A stretch of 24,199 bases of DNA from a virus. Taxonomy: Duplodnaviria > Caudoviricetes. Both the position numbers and the translations under genes were made by a program. Below the pieces are notes generated by a model. That model was given only the letters and a program-made list of their open reading frames with translations, was not told the origin of the DNA and did not search any database. The DNA lies in the IMG/VR virus record IMGVR_UViG_3300021598_000365, positions 1 through 24,199 of that record. One strand, 5' to 3'. Of this stretch, positions 761 through 17,134 are shown piece after piece (within the stretch, counting starts at the first letter, position 1; every line of letters starts with the position of its first letter).

Positions 761-984
761 GCGCAAAGCAGGGGCTACGCTCTGGCGACCGCATCATGAC
801 CGGGACCGGCGCAAACCGGCGACGACTGACCACCGCAGAGGCAGAGGCAGGAGCATTGCCAGAGCTGATGACGAACGAGGAGTGGGACGCGATGCACACC
901 GCATCTCACATGGCATCCTATGGCGCGTTTCTCTGGTGGAAGCGATACGCGCAACGAGTCATCCACCGCGAGAGGAATCCATGA
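757..984 (+). CDS. Hypothetical phage protein (75 aa)
   Basis: AGGAGG SD in the junction repeat; ATGA overlaps at both ends. Confidence 0.75.
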   Translation: MSAKQGLRSGDRIMTGTGANRRRLTTAEAEAGALPELMTNEEWDAMHTASHMASYGAFLWWKRYAQRVIHRERNP

Positions 985-1645: not shown

Positions 1646-1976
1646 GGTGGACCCGACCGAGCAGGACCGGATCGACCCGCGTGACCCCGAGGTGCGCGTG
1701 ACCCCGATGCCACCTTACGGAGAACCGCCCCGACTGCCGAAGTTCGTCCGCAAGGCCGGGGACATTCGCAAGGACATCATCCGAGCGTATGTGCGCCGAG
1801 GGGAGTCCGACCCGCTCAAGATCGCCAAGAGCGAGCGGTGTACGAAGGAGCTGATCCTGTACTACGCGAGGCGCATGGAGGACATCGCGGTGGAGATTTA
1901 CCAGCCCAAGCCGGGGGTGCGCTCGAAAGCTCGCATCGTGCTGAAAGATCCATCGTTTGATAGACCCCTGTATTGA
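1638..1976 (+). CDS. Putative DNA-binding protein, possible (winged) HTH (112 aa)
   Basis: GTG at 1638 overlaps the upstream gene end. KDIIRAYVRRGESDPLKIAKSERCTKELILYYARRM has HTH-like spacing and is followed by two beta-like segments. Function is inferred. Confidence 0.55.
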   Translation: MSEVDPTEQDRIDPRDPEVRVTPMPPYGEPPRLPKFVRKAGDIRKDIIRAYVRRGESDPLKIAKSERCTKELILYYARRMEDIAVEIYQPKPGVRSKARIVLKDPSFDRPLY

Positions 1977-1989
1977 CAAGATTGACAAG
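1972..1989 (+). repeat. Tandem 9-bp repeat ATTGACAAG x2 over the -35 element
   Basis: Read directly: 1972-1980 and 1981-1989. Confidence 0.9.
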
Positions 1990-2001
1990 CTGCCATAGGT
2001 T
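1973..2001 (+). promoter_or_regulatory. Sigma70-type promoter for the replication module (TTGACA-17 bp-TAGGTT)
   Basis: Perfect -35 at 1973-1978, 17-bp spacer, and -10 TAGGTT at 1996-2001 retaining the key T, A and final T. It lies in the only sizeable gap of the + arm. Confidence 0.75.
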
Positions 2002-2039
2002 GCATCACGAAGTCCCCACACACTTTCCCATGAGGATGT

Positions 2040-2504
2040 ATGCCGATTCACAAGCTCGCCAACGGCCCGATCACGCTGAACCCTGTCACCGCCATTGAAT
2101 CCGCCGAGGGCAACTTCGGCCCCCAGATGGTGTTCAAGGGCAACGCCGACGACATCGTATTCATCAGCGAGATGAGCGGGGCCAAGGGCCTAGCGCGGCT
2201 CAACCTGACCCCCGAAACCGCCATCGGGAAGGCGCTGACGCTGGAGCAGATCAAGAAGGACGGCAAGACGTTCACGAACATCCACTTGGCGGGCAACGCA
2301 CCGGCTGGGGCGGCTCAGGCGGCTCCGGTGGCGCGAGCGGCGACCCCGCCGATGGATGTGGCGGCACTGGGCGCGATCTACAACCAGTGCGTCGATCAGG
2401 CGATGGCAACCCTCGGCGTCAAGTGCGAGGCGCTGGGCCTTCCGATTGATGCCAGCGCGATTCAGGCGGCAGCGGCCACCCTCTTTATCAAGGCGACCCG
2501 CTAA
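2040..2504 (+). CDS. Putative single-stranded DNA-binding protein (OB-fold-like N-terminus, Ala/Pro linker, helical C-terminus)
   Basis: SD GAGGA at 2032-2036. The ~85-aa N-domain is beta-rich (EGNFGPQMVF...KKDGKTFTNI) and the gene is first in the module, near the exonuclease. The CDS is solid; the function is inferred. Confidence 0.45.
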   Translation: MPIHKLANGPITLNPVTAIESAEGNFGPQMVFKGNADDIVFISEMSGAKGLARLNLTPETAIGKALTLEQIKKDGKTFTNIHLAGNAPAGAAQAAPVARAATPPMDVAALGAIYNQCVDQAMATLGVKCEALGLPIDASAIQAAAATLFIKATR

Positions 2505-2719
2505 TGCCGACCCTCGACTTCACCCCGATGGAACACGCCACGCTGATATCGCTGGCCGCGCTGGGCATTGCGGTCATGCAGAACGACGAGGAGCGCGGGA
2601 AGGAGCATATCGGCATCCTCTCGTCGCCCGGCGTAGAGGAGGCAGCGGAGGCCGTCCTGACCAAGCTGGTGGCACCGCTGATGCCGCAGGAGCCGCCGAA
2701 GCTCCACTTGGAGTCCTGA
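2504..2719 (+). CDS. Hypothetical protein (71 aa)
   Basis: TAATG and TGATG one-base overlaps with both neighbours. Confidence 0.7.
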   Translation: MPTLDFTPMEHATLISLAALGIAVMQNDEERGKEHIGILSSPGVEEAAEAVLTKLVAPLMPQEPPKLHLES

Positions 2720-3552
2720 TGGGCACGATCACCAACGTCCACGGCTTGCCACAGAGTATCGTGGCAGCTGTGACGGCGGACCCGTATGTGGGGGGCGGGG
2801 ACATCAGTGTGACCAAGCTGATCGACGCCCCACAGATTCGGACGCTGATGGCGCAGCACAAGGATAAGATCACCACCGATGTCTCGGAGCGGATCTGGTC
2901 GCTGCTGGGACAGGCGGTGCATACAATTCTAGAACGGGCGGCACTCCGGCAGGAGGGCATGGTGGCAGAAGATCGCCTGTATGCCGAGGTCGCGGGGTGG
3001 CAGGTCTCTGGGCAGTTTGATGTCATACAGATGGATACGGGCGTCCTGAGCGACTACAAGGTGACGACCGTGTACAAGCTCCAGAACATTGACGGCTGGA
3101 CGCAGCAGCTCAACGTGCTGCGCTGGCTGGCCCACAAGAACGGCATTGCCGTGACCTCGCTGGAGATCATTGCCCTCCTGCGCGACTGGAAGAAGGGGAA
3201 GGCCGAGCGCAAGCCCGACTCCTACCCGCAGACGCCGATTGTGCGGGTGGAGATCCCGCTCTGGTCGCTGGAGGAGGCCGAGGAGTACATTCTGGATCGG
3301 GTGCAGCTCCACCAGTACGCGCAGCAGGGTGGGCGCGTAGACTGCACAAACGAGGAGCGGTGGTACACCGGGACGCAGTTCGCGCTGATGAAGGAGGGCG
3401 GCAAGCGAGCGGTCAAGCTGTTCGACGAGCGCCCGACCGAGATTCCAGAAGGCCACCATGTAGAGGAGCGCCCGGGCGAGTACCGCCGCTGTGCGTCCCA
3501 CTGCGAGGTGCGGCACTTCTGCCGTCAAGCACAGGAGACTGGACATGGATAA
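2719..3552 (+). CDS. PD-(D/E)xK superfamily exonuclease, Cas4/RecB-like (277 aa)
   Basis: Motifs ISVTKL, LGQAVHTILE, E-x-R, GQFD...DYK, and a C-terminal C-x3-C-x5-C cluster. Start ATG 2719 is coupled to the upstream stop. Confidence 0.85.
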   Translation: MGTITNVHGLPQSIVAAVTADPYVGGGDISVTKLIDAPQIRTLMAQHKDKITTDVSERIWSLLGQAVHTILERAALRQEGMVAEDRLYAEVAGWQVSGQFDVIQMDTGVLSDYKVTTVYKLQNIDGWTQQLNVLRWLAHKNGIAVTSLEIIALLRDWKKGKAERKPDSYPQTPIVRVEIPLWSLEEAEEYILDRVQLHQYAQQGGRVDCTNEERWYTGTQFALMKEGGKRAVKLFDERPTEIPEGHHVEERPGEYRRCASHCEVRHFCRQAQETGHG

Positions 3553-3745
3553 CCCCCCAAAGCTCAGTATCCCTGAGCGCCGTGCGCTGATCGCGTCCCT
3601 CTATGCCCAGGGACAAACGACCAGACAGATTGCCGAACGGCTCGGCATTAGTTATCAAGCCGTGCATCAGATGTTGCAACGCCTCGACATCCCCCGCCGT
3701 CCGCGTGGCGGCAACATGGGCAGTCACTCCCGCCGCAAGAAATAA
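3545..3745 (+). CDS. Small helix-turn-helix DNA-binding protein (66 aa)
   Basis: LYAQGQTTRQIAERLGISYQAVHQML is a classic HTH; SD AGGAG lies upstream of ATG 3545. Confidence 0.85.
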   Translation: MDNPPKLSIPERRALIASLYAQGQTTRQIAERLGISYQAVHQMLQRLDIPRRPRGGNMGSHSRRKK

Positions 3746-3749
3746 CCCG

Positions 3750-4145
3750 ATGACCCACCCCGCCATGACACCCAACCCGCTGCGCCGTTACGGGCCGACC
3801 CGCAAGGAACACCTGTCGTTTGCCAACCTGCTGGTGGGCGACATCCACGACCTGTACCCCGAGCGCGATGTGCCGCATCCCCATGTCCCGACCCGTACCG
3901 CCGTGCTGGACCTGCTGAAAGAAGGCGTGGAGCCGATGGACCTGCTCCGTGCGGCACGGAACTACGCCGCGTACTGCGAGAAGGAAGGCACCCCACCGAA
4001 GTACCGGATCGGCTCGACGCGCTTCTACCGCGACGGGGTCTGGCAGCAGTTCAATCTCGTGACCGTACATGGCCGCACCCGCGAGGAGTGGGCACGGTCT
4101 GGGCAGGATGTGGCCGAGTTCGACCGACTGGCAGGTGGCGTATGA
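3750..4145 (+). CDS. Protein resembling the C-terminal domain of phage replication initiators (131 aa)
   Basis: Pattern LYP...LLRAARNYAAYC...KYRIGSTRFY...W recalls lambdoid replication protein C-termini. The start could be 3750 or 3765. Confidence 0.5.
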   Translation: MTHPAMTPNPLRRYGPTRKEHLSFANLLVGDIHDLYPERDVPHPHVPTRTAVLDLLKEGVEPMDLLRAARNYAAYCEKEGTPPKYRIGSTRFYRDGVWQQFNLVTVHGRTREEWARSGQDVAEFDRLAGGV

Positions 4146-4360
4146 AGATCACGCGCACATCCTGTGTGACCGGCGAGGAGCGGTCCCGCCATATCCCGAT
4201 CACCCAGGAGCAGGTGGACGCGATCCGTCACCTGACCGATCCGGCGCAGGTGGACGCCATCGTGCCCAACCTCACCCGTGCGGACCAGTGGTTCCTCGTG
4301 TTGGGGATCACGGACTACGAGTGGGATGCGCTGGGCGCTCCCGTTGACGAGGAGTGCTAA
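4142..4360 (+). CDS. Conserved-type small phage protein (72 aa, MKITRTS..TG...PITQEQ...GIT..EW)
   Basis: ATGA coupling. The motif pattern is recognised from small aquatic phage proteins of unknown function. Confidence 0.75.
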   Translation: MKITRTSCVTGEERSRHIPITQEQVDAIRHLTDPAQVDAIVPNLTRADQWFLVLGITDYEWDALGAPVDEEC

Positions 4361-4363
4361 CCT

Positions 4364-4933
4364 ATGCCGCACAACATCAGTCTGCCGCGCCACCGCTATG
4401 TGTGGGTGGAAAGCGAAAGCGTCCTGTCCGACGAGTTTGACTTGCAAGCACGAACGCCAGCCGTGTGGTGGGGGGTCAGTGTCACCCCGAACCGAACGCT
4501 GGCCTGTCATGTCGTCCTAGAGAACGGCGCGATGGTGGTGGATCTCCCGCTCGACTGCTTGCGGTGGGTTGATCCGCTCTTTGAGAACGAGCGAACCGTA
4601 CAGGAAGATGTCGCCTCCGCGACATGGGACTGCTATGGGTGGGATGCGGAGATCGTGTCCTGTGACTATCTGGATCAGATGCCCGTGACCATTCTGTGCG
4701 CGGACCACAAGGAAACGTCAGTGCGTGGATCGCTGTGGTTCGCCGTGGATCACAAGAAAGACGGCTTTAGCATGGAACCCGCGCAACACAAGCACCTGTG
4801 GGTCGTGGCCGTGGAGACTGGAGAGTTTATGTGGCTCCCACAAGACCAACTGTTGCTGCATGACAAGTCGTTTACCGATGTGCAAGGGATTCCGAAGATC
4901 AAGCGTCAGTCGGTGATTCGGAGCAACGAGTGA
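4364..4933 (+). CDS. Conserved-type phage protein of unknown function (189 aa)
   Basis: SD GAGGAG. Motifs LENGA..LP, WDCYG, P.QHK and D.SFT recall a widespread phage family. Confidence 0.75.
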   Translation: MPHNISLPRHRYVWVESESVLSDEFDLQARTPAVWWGVSVTPNRTLACHVVLENGAMVVDLPLDCLRWVDPLFENERTVQEDVASATWDCYGWDAEIVSCDYLDQMPVTILCADHKETSVRGSLWFAVDHKKDGFSMEPAQHKHLWVVAVETGEFMWLPQDQLLLHDKSFTDVQGIPKIKRQSVIRSNE

Positions 4934-6666
4934 ACCATCTCGACGCCCACGGGCTGCTGAAGTCCGCGCTGTTGCGTCGGAAGGGCACGAAGAAGTCGGG
5001 CGCAAAGCTCGCCTTCTGCTGCCCACGCCATACGGATAGCAATGCGTCCGCGTGGATGGGCGACCATGCGTGGGGCTGCTCGGCCTGTGGCTTTACCGAG
5101 CCGCTGCGCTCGCTGGCCGAGGAGCTGCACGTTGACCTCCCTGCCGCGACGGGCAGCAACGGCCTGACCCTGTTCGACTACGCCGAACACAAGAAGCTGG
5201 CCCTCGACTCGCTGGCGAAGTACGGCGTCACCGAACGGACAGGGAAGTACGGGGAGCCGCTGGTGGTCATTCCGTACTATGACGCGAACGGCACCGTGCT
5301 GCGAACCAAGCTGCGGACCCGCAAGGGCACGTTCTGGGACAAGGACGGGGAAGGCGCACCGCTCTACGGCCAGCAGGTATTGGCCGCAGCACCGAAGGAT
5401 GCGCCCGTCCTACTTGTAGAGGGCGAGTCCGACTGTCACGCCGCGTGGCAGCGGGGCATCTGCGCGGTCGGCTTGCCGGGGGCGTCCCAGTGGCGTCCTG
5501 AGTATGCGACCCTGCTCGCCAACCGCACCGTGTATGTGTGGCAGGAGCCGGATCAAGGCGGGGCCACGCTGATTGCCTCCGTCGCCAAGTCGCTCCCCAA
5601 GGCCAAGGTGATCCGGGATGTGACGGTGGGCGGAACGGGGATCAAAGACCTGTGTGACCTGCACGGGGCGGTCAGCGACTTGGGCGAGGACTGGACCGCG
5701 ATCTGGACGGCGCTGCTCAAGACCGCCACGCCTATCGGGGCAGAACCGCCCGTGGTCGCGTTCGACAGCATCACGGGCCTGACGCTCGAACGGATCTTTG
5801 AGCAGAAGCAAGCGCCGATTGAAGCGGTGCCTACGCCTCTGGCGCTGTGGAACCTCTGCTGTGGGGGCGGTGGTGGCGGGATCGGGTTGGCGCGAGGGTG
5901 GAACATCGTCATCGGCGCAAACACCGGCACGGGTAAGTCGTTGATTGCCTTGAACTTAGCGAACACCGCGATCCGTCACGGCGAGGTGGTCACTTTTATT
6001 TCGCTGGAGATGGGACGCGATGAGTTGGCGACCCGCTTCTTGGCGATCGCGGCGGATCTGCCGGTCAAGCAGTTAGAGCAGGGCAGCACGTTCGATCCGC
6101 TGACGTTCACGAAAGCGGCGATGGCCGTGGACGCCATCCATCGGGAAACGGGTGGGCACTTGATCGTGAACCGCCTCCCCATCAGCAAGATCGACGACAT
6201 CGTTCACGCGATGCGCTACCACCACGACCATGCGGGGTGCAAGTATTTCATCGTGGACTACTTGCAGCTCATCTGGGCACCCAACGTCCAAGCCATCCAC
6301 GACCGGATGGAGCTGGTGTCGCACCAACTGCGGGAAGCCGCCCTGTCGCTCGGGGTGACGCTCGTGACCCTCTCGCAGTTCAACCGCCAGACCTCGGCCA
6401 ATCGGCAGGAGCGTCCGGTGGCGCAAGGGTTGATGGGTGGCAGCGCGGTGGAGAACGATGCCCACCAAGTCCTGCTATTCGACCACTCCCGCTTCATCCG
6501 CAACGGCCTCACGGCAGACACCTTTCTCATCATCGACAAGAACCGCCACGGCAGCGTGGAGGACATCCCCGTGCGGTGGAACTATCAGAACCTCAGACTG
6601 GAGCCACGGGTGGCCCCGCCGGAGAAGGACGGCTGGAGCGCCCGGATCGGGAGAAAGGACAAGTGA
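4930..6666 (+). CDS. DNA primase-helicase fusion (Zn finger + TOPRIM + DnaB-like SF4 helicase)
   Basis: CPRH...CSACG Zn finger; VEGESD and GLPGA TOPRIM motifs; Walker A GANTGTGKS; FISLEM; Walker B IVDYLQL; LSQFNR; GSAVENDA; KNRHG. Confidence 0.95.
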   Translation: MNHLDAHGLLKSALLRRKGTKKSGAKLAFCCPRHTDSNASAWMGDHAWGCSACGFTEPLRSLAEELHVDLPAATGSNGLTLFDYAEHKKLALDSLAKYGVTERTGKYGEPLVVIPYYDANGTVLRTKLRTRKGTFWDKDGEGAPLYGQQVLAAAPKDAPVLLVEGESDCHAAWQRGICAVGLPGASQWRPEYATLLANRTVYVWQEPDQGGATLIASVAKSLPKAKVIRDVTVGGTGIKDLCDLHGAVSDLGEDWTAIWTALLKTATPIGAEPPVVAFDSITGLTLERIFEQKQAPIEAVPTPLALWNLCCGGGGGGIGLARGWNIVIGANTGTGKSLIALNLANTAIRHGEVVTFISLEMGRDELATRFLAIAADLPVKQLEQGSTFDPLTFTKAAMAVDAIHRETGGHLIVNRLPISKIDDIVHAMRYHHDHAGCKYFIVDYLQLIWAPNVQAIHDRMELVSHQLREAALSLGVTLVTLSQFNRQTSANRQERPVAQGLMGGSAVENDAHQVLLFDHSRFIRNGLTADTFLIIDKNRHGSVEDIPVRWNYQNLRLEPRVAPPEKDGWSARIGRKDK

Positions 6667-7064
6667 GCGCGGTGCGGACCATGACCTTTAGCGTCCCGTG
6701 GGCGGCACTGATTTCCGACAACCGGAAATACGTTACCGGCTACATTCTGAGCAAAGAGTACCGCGAGGCCAAGACGCTCATCGGGCAACTGGCGATGGCC
6801 GCTGCAAAGAAGGCGGGCTGGACGCGGCAGGAGGGGCGCTTGCTGATTGATGTGGTGGTGCGGGAGCCAGACAGGAGGCGGCGGGATCTCAACTACCAGA
6901 AGGCGTTCTTGGACGGCATCACCGACAGCGAGGCGATCTGGCACGACGACAGCCAGATCCGGCGAGCGGTGTGGGAGTTCGACGACCTGAACGAGCGGGA
7001 CAAGACCAAGGCGGGGGCGGTTGTCACCATTGCCGTCCTTGACACGCCAGTATCAGCCCCATAA
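6663..7064 (+). CDS. rusA: RusA-family Holliday junction resolvase (133 aa)
   Basis: PDRRRRDLN-x2-K-x3-D and WHDDSQI motifs; GTGA coupling to the helicase stop. Confidence 0.88.
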   Translation: MSAVRTMTFSVPWAALISDNRKYVTGYILSKEYREAKTLIGQLAMAAAKKAGWTRQEGRLLIDVVVREPDRRRRDLNYQKAFLDGITDSEAIWHDDSQIRRAVWEFDDLNERDKTKAGAVVTIAVLDTPVSAP

Positions 7065-7067
7065 GTT
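7039..7067 (+). promoter_or_regulatory. Sigma70-type promoter (TTGACA-17 bp-TAAGTT) embedded in the 3' end of rusA
   Basis: Perfect -35 at 7039-7044 and -10 at 7062-7067. It has the same CCATARGTTG context as the promoter at 1973. No + strand gene follows it. Confidence 0.75.
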
Positions 7068-7073
7068 GTCGGG

Positions 7074-7158
7074 CATGGGTAGTCTCTGGCGGGGTTTCCC
7101 ATAGCATCCTCTTGGGTGGGTGTGCCAAAGCCCTCGGATTGTCTTCCGGGGGCTTTGT
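7074..7158 (+). ncRNA. Candidate trans-acting small RNA (~85 nt) with anti-SD seed
   Basis: Lies between a promoter and a terminator-like hairpin. It has a 5' hairpin (7075-7102) and a seed (7100-7124) complementary to 2019-2042. G-U pairs favour the + strand. Ends are approximate. Confidence 0.65.
7126..7157 (+). terminator. Intrinsic terminator-like hairpin between convergent arms, possibly bidirectional
   Basis: CAAAGCCCTCGGA-TTGTCT-TCCGGGGGCTTTG forms a 13-bp stem with one G-U on the + strand. The U tracts are short (3 nt) on both strands. Confidence 0.7.
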
Positions 7159-7182
7159 GCTACCTACCACTGCCAAGTGCCG

Positions 7183-7662
7183 TTAGATCGCGTTGACGGC
7201 CTTCCAGACGGCTTCCACGCCCCCAGTCTCTAGGAGCTTGGCGGCACTCGGGGATGGGCTCCGACGCATCGGGGCACCCCACTGAATGTGCGGGTAGTCG
7301 CGGAACGTCCAGTCACCACCCCAGACCAATCCCTGCGCTTTGGCGGCGGCTCCGAGCTGCTGCCACCACTGCATCGGAGCCTCCCAGCCCTTCGCCTGGT
7401 GGATGATGTCCGCCGCCAGCCCGTAGTGGTGCCAGGTGTCCAGCGCGGTTTCGCTGTGGGTGACGATGCCACGCCCGTCGTCATACTGCCGCCCAAAGCC
7501 ATAGAGATACCGCTGCCGTGCGTCCGTCCGCAGCGTTTCCGCCACGGTCGCATACGGCACCGCCTCCAGCACCCGTTCGATCTTGGCGCGGAAGGCGGGA
7601 GCCAGTACGTCAAGGCTCTTGACCACCGCCACCGCCCGAGGGAGCGTTCCGCGCTTTGGCAT
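7183..7662 (-). CDS. Endolysin, M15 family metallopeptidase (L-Ala-D-Glu peptidase-like)
   Basis: ETLRT..RQ..LY..GR, IVT, H-x2-GLAAD, GLVWGGDW and D.PHIQ motifs. Confidence 0.92.
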   Translation of the reverse strand: MPKRGTLPRAVAVVKSLDVLAPAFRAKIERVLEAVPYATVAETLRTDARQRYLYGFGRQYDDGRGIVTHSETALDTWHHYGLAADIIHQAKGWEAPMQWWQQLGAAAKAQGLVWGGDWTFRDYPHIQWGAPMRRSPSPSAAKLLETGGVEAVWKAVNAI

Positions 7663-15745: not shown

Positions 15746-17134
15746 TTAGACCTTGGAGATGGTGCAGATGATAGATGCCGTGGACGGGTGGACCGCCGTG
15801 GACGGCAGGAACTCCAGCGTCACATCCAGATCGCTCACGGCCCAGTACAACTGGAGGTAGTCGTTCGCGGCCAGTTCGACGTAGTAATTCCACCCCGGCA
15901 ACACATGGCCGTTGACCCCGCCGTGCCGCTCAGGGACGGACACCACGCCGTTCGACCCCGTGACGTAGGTGCTGTTCTTTGCCAGCCAGATGTTTACGTC
16001 ATGGATCTGCGTGTCGGAATTGGTGAACTGCCCCGACCACTGGAAGTTGTACACCCCCGCCTGACTGACCGTGATCTTGGAGTTGGTCAGCCCCGTATCA
16101 ATCGACACGCCATAGGCCGTATCAATCGTGTCGAACGTGATGAGCTTGGCCGTGTTGATTGAGGTGTGCGACTGGTCCGTAAAGTCTTGGAACGCGCCCC
16201 AGCGCCGTCCGCTCTGGCCCGTATCGCCAATGGTGATCCATGCGCCATTGACGTAGAAGTAGATCAGCCCCGTGTCCGTGCCGACGTACATCCCGCCGTT
16301 GGGCAGGACCGCAGGACGGAGCGCCAGCGTCCCAGACTGCACATGGATCAGCGAGTTGCCGTCATGCGCGGTGATGGCCGACCCCACCAGATTGTCATTG
16401 GCGCGGACGATATTGGCATCGACCGGCCCTTGCTGGTTGACCGGCGAGGGGAACGGATCGACCTTGTTGCGCCCGATCTGCGACTGCGTGTAGATGACAT
16501 CGGCGGTCTGGCCGGTCAGCGTATAGCTGCCATGCGCGGCGACCAGCAGCGGCCCCTTGCGGAGATCCGCTGTCTGCCCTGCTAGACTGAACGCGCCATA
16601 GCCTGCCGCCACCCGTCGAGCGGGGATCAGCCCAGCCGCTTCGCCCGTGAAGGTGAAGTGCCCCGTATCCGGCGCAAAGGCGTAGCCCTTGCCGAACGCC
16701 GTCGCTTGGCCGTCCAGCGTGAACGTGCCGTGGTCTGCCGTGACGAGGCGAGTGACAGGGAAGCCAGCGTCCTGTCCCGTCAGCGCAAACGTCCCGTGGT
16801 CCAAGGGGAACGTGCGGCTGCTGGTTAGCGTAGCGTCTTGGCCCGACAGCGTGAAGGTGCCGTGGACAGGGCTAAAGGCATAGCCCAGCCCGAAGGCCGT
16901 GGACTGCCCATCCAGCGTGTACGTCCCGTGGTCCGCGACAAGGCGAGCGCCCTTGAGGAACGTGACCGCCTCACCCGAGAGCGTGTACGACCCGTGCGCG
17001 GCAGACAGGCTGAACGAGGCGCTGGTGGCTGCATCCTGCCCACTCAGCGTAAATGTGCCCACGGCGGCGATGAGGACTCGCGCCACCCCCGTCGAGGAGA
17101 GTGGCGCACCGCTGATCGGGAACCCAGAAAGCAT
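15746..17134 (-). CDS. Fibre protein: nine 22-aa repeats + tail-anchor-like domain + C1q/TNF-like C-terminal domain (462 aa)
   Basis: G(T/S)(F/Y)TL.GQ repeats; C-terminal WGAF...ITFD...ITVSQAGVYNFQWS...VELAANDYLQLY jelly-roll pattern. Confidence 0.7.
   Translation of the reverse strand: MLSGFPISGAPLSSTGVARVLIAAVGTFTLSGQDAATSASFSLSAAHGSYTLSGEAVTFLKGARLVADHGTYTLDGQSTAFGLGYAFSPVHGTFTLSGQDATLTSSRTFPLDHGTFALTGQDAGFPVTRLVTADHGTFTLDGQATAFGKGYAFAPDTGHFTFTGEAAGLIPARRVAAGYGAFSLAGQTADLRKGPLLVAAHGSYTLTGQTADVIYTQSQIGRNKVDPFPSPVNQQGPVDANIVRANDNLVGSAITAHDGNSLIHVQSGTLALRPAVLPNGGMYVGTDTGLIYFYVNGAWITIGDTGQSGRRWGAFQDFTDQSHTSINTAKLITFDTIDTAYGVSIDTGLTNSKITVSQAGVYNFQWSGQFTNSDTQIHDVNIWLAKNSTYVTGSNGVVSVPERHGGVNGHVLPGWNYYVELAANDYLQLYWAVSDLDVTLEFLPSTAVHPSTASIICTISKV
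16490..17059 (-). repeat. 66-bp/22-aa period coding repeat, 8 full units + 1 partial
   Basis: Counted in the translation from aa 26 to 215; the period is strict, with no indels. Confidence 0.85.

Follow-up and report, generated by a model that had tools for sequence, protein, structure and literature searches.

A small RNA predicted to be encoded between the converging gene arms of an uncultured tailed phage likely keeps the first genes that the phage expresses from being translated, through base pairing that covers their ribosome-binding sites and start codons. As judged from comparison of related loci, the predicted sRNA is one member of a family that is real and unannotated; it likely shuts down the earliest genes and, in the phage considered here, probably also two replication genes.

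The stretch of DNA analysed (24,199 nt of IMG/VR record IMGVR_UViG_3300021598_000365, hereafter the window) is part of a tailed phage in which a rightward arm, with genes for an exonuclease, a primase-helicase and lastly a rusA-like resolvase (6663..7064, plus strand; PHROG 34, PF05866), converges on a leftward late arm. The final gene of the late arm encodes an endolysin of the M15 peptidase type (7183..7662, minus strand), identified by PHROG and Pfam scans, and the 118-nt gap between rusA, the final gene of the early/replication arm, and the endolysin gene contains the predicted RNA gene. A predicted promoter for the replication module (TTGACA-17-TAGGTT, 1973..2001, plus strand) is kept in the close clade, as is a doubled TTGACAAG repeat at 1973-1987, which is possibly an operator or a second -35 element. 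The 154-aa product of the gene at 2040..2504 (plus strand) is called SSB-like on weak evidence: it has an OB-fold-like N-terminal domain but no PHROG or Pfam match, and the best Foldseek matches to its structural model (pLDDT 84) were PrgE and SSB at E 0.02-0.05, with none at E≤0.001. The gene at 3768-4145 (plus strand) is assigned to an initiator family, its homologue in L030 matching replication initiation PHROG 270 with E 1e-20. A second record, G003, is 99.5-99.8% identical to the window, carries an identical RNA and reaches 4 kb further upstream. Several rearrangements were observed among the relatives. The SSB-to-rusA block (window 1977-7182; L054:16269-16615) is inverted between the window's clade and L054; in most relatives, holin and endolysin genes are co-directional and lie upstream of the SSB-like gene; and L006 exceeds the window by 48 nt over the shared stretch. 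Within the gene at 17134-15746, the window itself has two 77-nt copies, ∼78% alike and 198 nt apart (16676-16947). A host search with the alignment of 2040 homologues returned no homologue among species genomes. No close cultured phage was found, and primase-domain matches were of only 36-40%, in three Chloroflexota assemblies. Of 36 proteins scanned against PHROGs, none pointed to an immunity region.

The preliminary description of this DNA had placed a plus-strand sRNA gene with a TTGACA-17-TAAGTT promoter at the end of rusA, and had read the transcript as a 5' hairpin, a linker and a 3' hairpin. All of the coordinates hold for this promoter, which is predicted to be of the sigma-70 type (7039..7067, plus strand; TTGACA at 7039-7044 and TAAGTT at 7062-7067), the -10 hexamer overlapping the rusA stop codon. 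TTG occupied the -35 position in 19 of 25 member contexts versus none of 14 non-member matches, in a search that was blind to the -35 region. As judged by this conservation only, the predicted RNA has its own promoter, and a conserved internal promoter argues for a primary transcript. A consensus scan called neither the RNA promoter, the -10 element of which matches at 3/6 positions, nor the terminator, which has a short U tract. The predicted RNA of ∼86-88 nt (7073..7160, plus strand) would start at 7073-7075 and end near 7160, and has a predicted fold of −42.8 kcal/mol (z −4.4). Both of the hairpins described fold as claimed. The conserved 5' hairpin (7075..7102, −8.3 kcal/mol), with a UGGC loop at 7087-7090 followed by a GGGG arm at 7091-7094, folds on the plus strand only; its loop presumably resembles the UUGGCG loop of CopT-type systems. 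The linker (7103..7125, plus strand) is variable, contains an anti-SD UCCUC, overlaps the seed proposed in the preliminary description and appears to be a second, lineage-specific pairing module. The terminator-like hairpin (7126..7160, plus strand; stem 7126-7157, −23.5 kcal/mol) has a weak UUUGUGC tail in the window, whereas the U tracts of relatives are canonical; it probably also ends the converging late transcript. Rfam returned no matches at E≤1 in the window, and none in seven relative loci. Assembled contigs from three runs, with small shares, were also inspected, and carry neither RNA ends nor strand: those from two RNA runs leave 7062-7125 uncovered, one RNA contig ends at 7126, and a contig probably derived from DNA has seven listed changes in 6989-7058 and none listed in 7062-7160.

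Relatives of the predicted RNA were sought from an alignment of 37 among 120 listed homologues of the 2040 protein, leading to 30 viral and 80 metagenome loci, many of which matched an element pattern defined only by a -10-like hexamer and the loop. Members of the family have a promoter and then a hairpin, the core of which is an invariant (U)GG-GGG, followed by a linker that varies and a terminator. When 20 distinct homologues were aligned, six loop and G-arm columns were invariant, and the 5' stem paired in 81% of cells (3/500 shuffles). The inner four pairs of the stem vary only between C-G and U-G, indicating that the G arm is held by something besides the stem. This plus-strand wobble pattern, together with the conservation of the family, supports the earlier proposal of RNA-level selection. 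A model (R1) built on the members found one held-out member (L141, E 0.013), and the window also matches. The RNA occurs in three settings, namely after rusA, where the early arm ends but on the opposite strand, and just before the promoter of the SSB-like gene; in L030, L097 and L103 it directly follows an early gene. The linker is absent or tiny in seven members (L009, L029, L030, L033, L035, L097 and L103). Five genomes picked as 'RNA-less' controls (G005, G008, G012, G014 and G021) failed in that role, since they carry variant RNAs. A second subtype, with a variable 5' hairpin and an invariant anti-SD linker, was observed at L148:19587-19664, L150:6458-6488, L152:9913-9936, L065:7451 and L110:11060. 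In L015 (minus strand, 15710) and L074 (plus strand, 5485), the spacer of the RNA promoter is an inverted repeat of the RNA's own linker (13 bp in L015), so that a read-through transcript from upstream could pair with the RNA. In L041, from 8533 onward, a gene is inserted between the RNA and the endolysin gene, and its start region is strongly complementary to the L041 linker (−16.5).

The 5' hairpin is antisense to a CCCGCC start box of the first early genes. These genes are situated beyond the upstream edge of the window, in the 99.5%-identical record, where early genes have an SD sequence plus CCCGCC just before the start codon. All five SD-CYCGCC-start sites in the 39-kb record lie within 1.9 kb, in one early operon. 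Boxed sites numbered 45, against 14.8 expected, in 21 records with a UGGCGG loop, and three, against 6.5 expected, in five records without the loop; the box pattern was drawn after inspection of the window's clade, which supplies 21 of the 45 sites. Net pairing energies were calculated with our own accessibility-aware routine based on Turner tables, checked against duplexfold on one duplex only. Among 51 homology-supported starts in G003, five early genes and the SSB-like gene took the first six places, with 15 of the 51 starts located in that arm. The first early gene (L118, minus strand, 6509) encodes 64 aa with no family match, had been hidden by an SD filter and was found by reading the sequence. 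Its leader has an 11-nt perfect match to RNA positions 7081-7091, and the 5' end of the RNA pairs over its AUG; the linker pairs just upstream on the same leader, so that the hairpin and linker modules pair simultaneously. The net energy is −20.6 or −18.0 kcal/mol, depending on the RNA start, a value reached by 28 of 500 shuffles, and three other 11-nt matches exist in the record. When 1,295 ATG/GTG starts were ranked, the top four were the first early gene (rank 1 or 2), the gene at 3768 (1 or 3), the gene at 2040 (third or fourth) and an early gene at 5733/5721. The predicted hairpin target at 3768 is a CCCCGCC-AUG (3757..3774, plus strand; net −19.2 kcal/mol), and CCGCC immediately precedes the ATG of the initiator family in 12 of 50 distinct relatives. 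Taken one at a time, most early sites stand out only modestly from shuffles of the same composition, the observed energy being reached by 7 to 56 of 200. In L016, L030, L033, L046 and L049, and not in the other seven sets, the best of 400-630 starts belongs to a gene of the first early stretch; in two of those five phages it encodes an AAA_5 ATPase. As a side observation, in several relatives the first or second early gene (L122:18528, L132:17595, L137:12548 and L134:6649) encodes a 460-500-aa protein and is a top predicted target; Pfam assigned AAA_5 ATPase to two of the proteins tested and gave no match for a third. A CCCCGCCAGA site complementary to the seed was also observed in the terminase small subunit region, on the strand opposite the gene (L046:798; L004, minus strand, 1106; L049, minus strand, 918).

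The correspondence between RNAs and early starts was then assessed across phages by scoring every RNA against every phage's starts, with the early region, which was chosen after hits had been seen, delimited with reference to the terminase small subunit only (opposite strand, +300 to +3,500). In 15 phages, cognate RNAs paired with early starts 3.4 kcal/mol better than foreign RNAs (p=2e-5), with L029 an exception in the wrong direction (+2.4). With own loci removed, and L029 and L074 left out for lack of control regions, the difference in 13 phages was −3.83 kcal/mol (p=2e-5); in two sets of 10, with one phage per clade, it was −3.79 and −3.63 kcal/mol. Control regions showed no such effect, with differences of +0.07 for late starts, +0.01 for the antisense strand and 0.00 for replication genes (range −0.4 to +0.4, all p>0.26), the replication control requiring an SD-like motif, so that starts such as 3768 fell outside it. 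The best cognate energies averaged −15.9 on early starts versus −7.6 to −10.2 on controls. Differences in the loop are accompanied by differences in the leaders. RNAs with a GUGGUG loop go with CCACCAC leaders (six versus 0.3 expected) and no CCCGCC box, although CCACCAC leaders are common in UGGCGG phages too (10 versus 0.9), and the G021 loop goes with a repeated CACCGCCAC. In G005, G008, G012, L065 and L110 the hairpin varies and the anti-SD linker is invariant, the early leaders of G005 and G012 reading CAGAG-AGGAG; the window's RNA carries both modules, the hairpin seed and the anti-SD linker. Three earlier tests, each run with filters that let the first early gene slip through, were weak or mixed: counts of boxes based on a noisy gene caller (0/63 in the window's genome), a whole-genome best-4 matrix (cognate ranks 1 to 22 of 28), and hairpin pairing without accessibility (p=0.007 for all 21; 0.17, 0.015 and 0.13 for subsets, with the window's phage off-diagonal). 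On the evidence of covariation, imperfect pairing with start regions encoded elsewhere appears to be conserved. The predicted RNA thus mirrors early start sites and changes with them between lineages, which argues that it likely shuts those genes down.

The preliminary description had centred instead on the linker, as the seed that masks the start of the SSB-like gene. The duplex that it described, between 7100-7124 and 2019-2042 (plus strand), was reproduced exactly: 20 Watson-Crick and two G-U pairs, two U-U mismatches and one bulge, covering the SD and AUG of 2040, with an energy of −30.7 kcal/mol, this being the duplex on which the routine reproduced the duplexfold value. The upstream promoter from which the leader around this site is predicted is present, with TTGACA (1973-1978), a 17-nt spacer and TAGGTT. 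With accessibility, the net energy is −17.7 kcal/mol; opening the linker, part of which is self-paired, costs 9.4 kcal/mol, and read-through to 7168 weakens the net value to −13.9. Leader shuffles with the SD and start fixed reached the observed value in four of 300 cases in one run and in none of 200 in another, and two of 300 linker shuffles that kept UCCUC reached the observed pairing. This is the most significant single pairing in the window's phage (0/200). Without accessibility, several other 40-nt windows score equal to the 2019-2042 site, and the expectation that this site would rank first among all starts was not borne out, since it came third or fourth of 1,295. Across 24 RNA-leader pairs, a set that kept the G014 RNA begun mid-molecule and a shortened L074 in the counts, cognate fits beat permuted ones (p=0.007; 0.047 with one per clade in 13 clades; 0.11 without the window's phage). 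Among the 24 RNAs, the cognate one fitted the SSB-like start best in the window, L041, L034 and L087, and came second in L054, the letters differing. In L046, a close relative, the pairing of the SSB-like leader is at shuffle level (147/300), and linkerless members show none. Conservation of the pairing in relatives is therefore upheld as far as some covariation goes, but fails in L046 and in the several members from which the linker is missing; since the cognate fit is limited to some lineages, pairing with 2040 is not the conserved feature of the family. The linker-2040 pairing is nonetheless real for some lineages, as these comparisons indicate, and the SSB-like gene is most likely a lineage-specific extra target of the predicted sRNA: pairing with its start is better than chance in the window, but that start is not what the family targets. 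It is the 5' hairpin, not the linker, that appears to be the conserved seed, with the early genes and the initiator-like gene as its predicted targets. A possible further linker target is the SD region of the gene at 981 (960..976, plus strand; −12.9 kcal/mol, 3/200 shuffles, rank 5 or 8 of 1,295). On paper the loop could also pair with codons 6-8 of the SSB-like gene, but this was rejected as weak by energy (−5.2 in L046, −3.2 in L049).

The mechanism that we propose is as follows. Transcription from 7073-7075 would be driven by the RNA's own promoter, situated where the early/replication arm ends, and the RNA would accumulate as infection runs. Pairing would begin between the UGGC loop and the CC(C)GCC box that lies between SD and AUG, after which the G-U-rich stem would unzip to cover the SD to AUG stretch, blocking ribosome loading. 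The best partners here would be the first early gene (L118, minus strand, 6509), several other boxed early genes and 3768, while anti-SD pairing by the linker would extend the reach to 2040 and perhaps to gene 981. Overall, the RNA would act as a negative feedback with a delay, bringing early host-takeover synthesis to an end and limiting the proteins of replication start. Repression of translation by occlusion of the SD or start is established (PMC12197685; for c4, PMC5320573, each as described in the available text), and repression is favoured here because the SD or AUG of leaders that are open falls within the predicted duplexes. That the pairing is real and not repressive, serving instead to activate or stabilise boxed mRNAs, or that the loop is kept for a host target, is unlikely. 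Several boxed initiator starts have no clear SD, as might suit activation, but the predicted duplexes cover the SD or AUG, and boxed leaders have A/C-rich sequences that take little energy to open (4.6 kcal/mol), such that there is little to unmask. In favour of a host target, the phage boxes vary more than the loop core does, and lambda PreS acts on host dnaN according to part of a review (PMC12197685), whereas the covariation observed is with phage early starts. It is rather unlikely, too, that the linker represses the SSB-like gene only, with the 5' hairpin as a stability element, as the preliminary description would have it. The significance of the linker-2040 duplex in the window's phage, and the first-placed cognate RNAs in the four phages named above, are in favour of this single target; however, the linker is missing or tiny in seven members and L046 pairs at shuffle level, the core sequence of the hairpin is invariant, and early starts covary far more strongly.

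Other readings dispense with base pairing altogether. The box might be a DNA or RNA site for a phage protein, with the element as a reversed copy of that site acting as an operator or decoy. The reverse complement of the RNA does resemble an early leader, and protein or RNA binding was left open for a similar box in the part of Pope et al. (2011; PMC3203893) available; this is nevertheless quite improbable, given that the stem tolerates only G-U changes, on the plus strand, and that the element has its own conserved promoter and terminator-like hairpin. Moreover, the element is the complement of the box and so cannot be an RNA decoy. That the gap holds only a bidirectional terminator between converging arms, the 2019-2042 match being due to chance or an inversion scar, is very unlikely, though the gap needs a terminator in any case, both sites lie at inversion junctions and L054 has the SSB-rusA block in the other orientation. 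Against it, L041 keeps the RNA's terminator hairpin even though its endolysin gene has a separate hairpin ∼650 nt on, the promoter and 5' hairpin are conserved beyond the terminator, and the RNA is found in three genomic settings; these settings, the -35 test and the covariation largely refute it. The inversion-scar idea was dropped because L054 retains the RNA after rusA plus a pairing leader in the other arrangement, and because the RNA moves around the genome. A coding function is exceedingly improbable. On the minus strand, GAGGA and an ATG precede a 69-codon ORF (7102 to 6893), and on the plus strand an ATG 7 nt after the -10 element could begin a leaderless 9-codon peptide, but neither frame is kept among the window, L041, L044, L046 and L054; a coding element on either strand was rejected, as starts, frames and lengths differ among these five. 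An attenuator or leader was likewise rejected, since convergent members have no sense gene downstream of the RNA.

The predicted sRNA that represses early genes resembles several known regulators in part. The C4 antisense RNA of phages P1 and P7, as described in portions of PMC5320573 and PMC8546580, acts in trans on the phage's own mRNA by two-part recognition at the ribosome-binding site, with co-changing targets. Both traits have a likeness here, in that the hairpin and linker are predicted to pair side by side on the first early leader and RNA and target change together between phages. However, C4 is a three-stem RNA cut out by RNase P and targets the ant region, whereas the predicted RNA has a hairpin-linker-terminator form, its own promoter and no Rfam match, and would target many early genes in a phage whose 36 scanned proteins do not point to an immunity region. 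OppZ and CarZ of Vibrio cholerae are autoregulatory 3'-end sRNAs, cut from mRNA by RNase E, that block translation (PMC7398697, in part). The predicted RNA similarly lies at the 3' end of a transcription unit predicted to be repressed, in a negative feedback by translation block, but it is phage-encoded, has a conserved promoter of its own and reads a box shared by many genes. Among the phage sRNAs reviewed in PMC12197685 (sar, OOP, aQ, PreS, VpdS, DicF and 24B_1), the likeness lies in phage-encoded base-pairing regulation and a DicF-like layout of seed and terminator; as described there, these RNAs either oppose a single gene as cis-antisense transcripts, target host mRNAs or take part in the choice between lysis and lysogeny, and in the available text of the review none targets a box common to a phage's own early genes and the term 'early gene' is absent. 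No prior report of this arrangement was found in the literature searched, subscription papers and the review's 38 function-less phage sRNAs lying outside its scope. U-turn (YUNR) kissing loops occur in plasmid and type I antitoxin RNAs (PMC2943612, in part); the predicted loop reads C/U-U-G-G, a fit of sequence only that would suit loop-first pairing, but the predicted targets here are trans-encoded and imperfect.

A similar box has been described in cultured phages. In the portion of Pope et al. (2011; PMC3203893) available, Cluster K mycobacteriophages carry start-associated sequences (SAS) at the starts of non-structural genes, beyond 16S pairing, together with one reversed copy that is not tied to a gene start; no partner RNA is named in that portion. 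The likeness lies in a shared start box confined to non-structural genes, with five of five boxed starts here in one early operon; the box here, however, is SD plus CYCGCC and not the 13-bp SAS consensus, and the phages are unrelated. In Anaya, 12 forward copies of SAS and one reversed copy were found in the 20.8 kb scanned. The reversed copy (JF704106, about 59850-59902; L160:19851-19903) lies in the unannotated gap between gp96 and gp97, in the loop of a long hairpin (z −4.8), and the stretch was found in 150 records. This hairpin also folds in Amelie, Amohnition and Shandong1 (in the L164-L168 set), where the loop is C/U-rich and the stems differ (z −0.6 to −2.5), and does not fold in Hurricane. 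The hairpin is a candidate anti-SAS sRNA in a cultured phage.

To our knowledge, early-gene shut-off in phages without a known repressor or sigma switch is mostly unexplained. A tentative generalisation, for which the odds fall somewhat short of even, is that phages can end the early phase via one self-encoded sRNA that reads a private box across the early regulon, the seed moving between hairpin and linker as boxes change, and that the same design explains the Cluster K SAS. The question raised in 2011 of whether these SAS are RNA-binding sites becomes testable, as the phages are cultured on M. smegmatis and a candidate partner has been located. If true, the arrangement would do at the RNA level what a transcriptional repressor does through its operators. 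A phage sRNA controlling a set of the phage's own mRNAs that a co-evolving start box marks out would be a compact answer to early-gene shut-off, and would offer a rare case in which a seed and its targets can be watched changing together.
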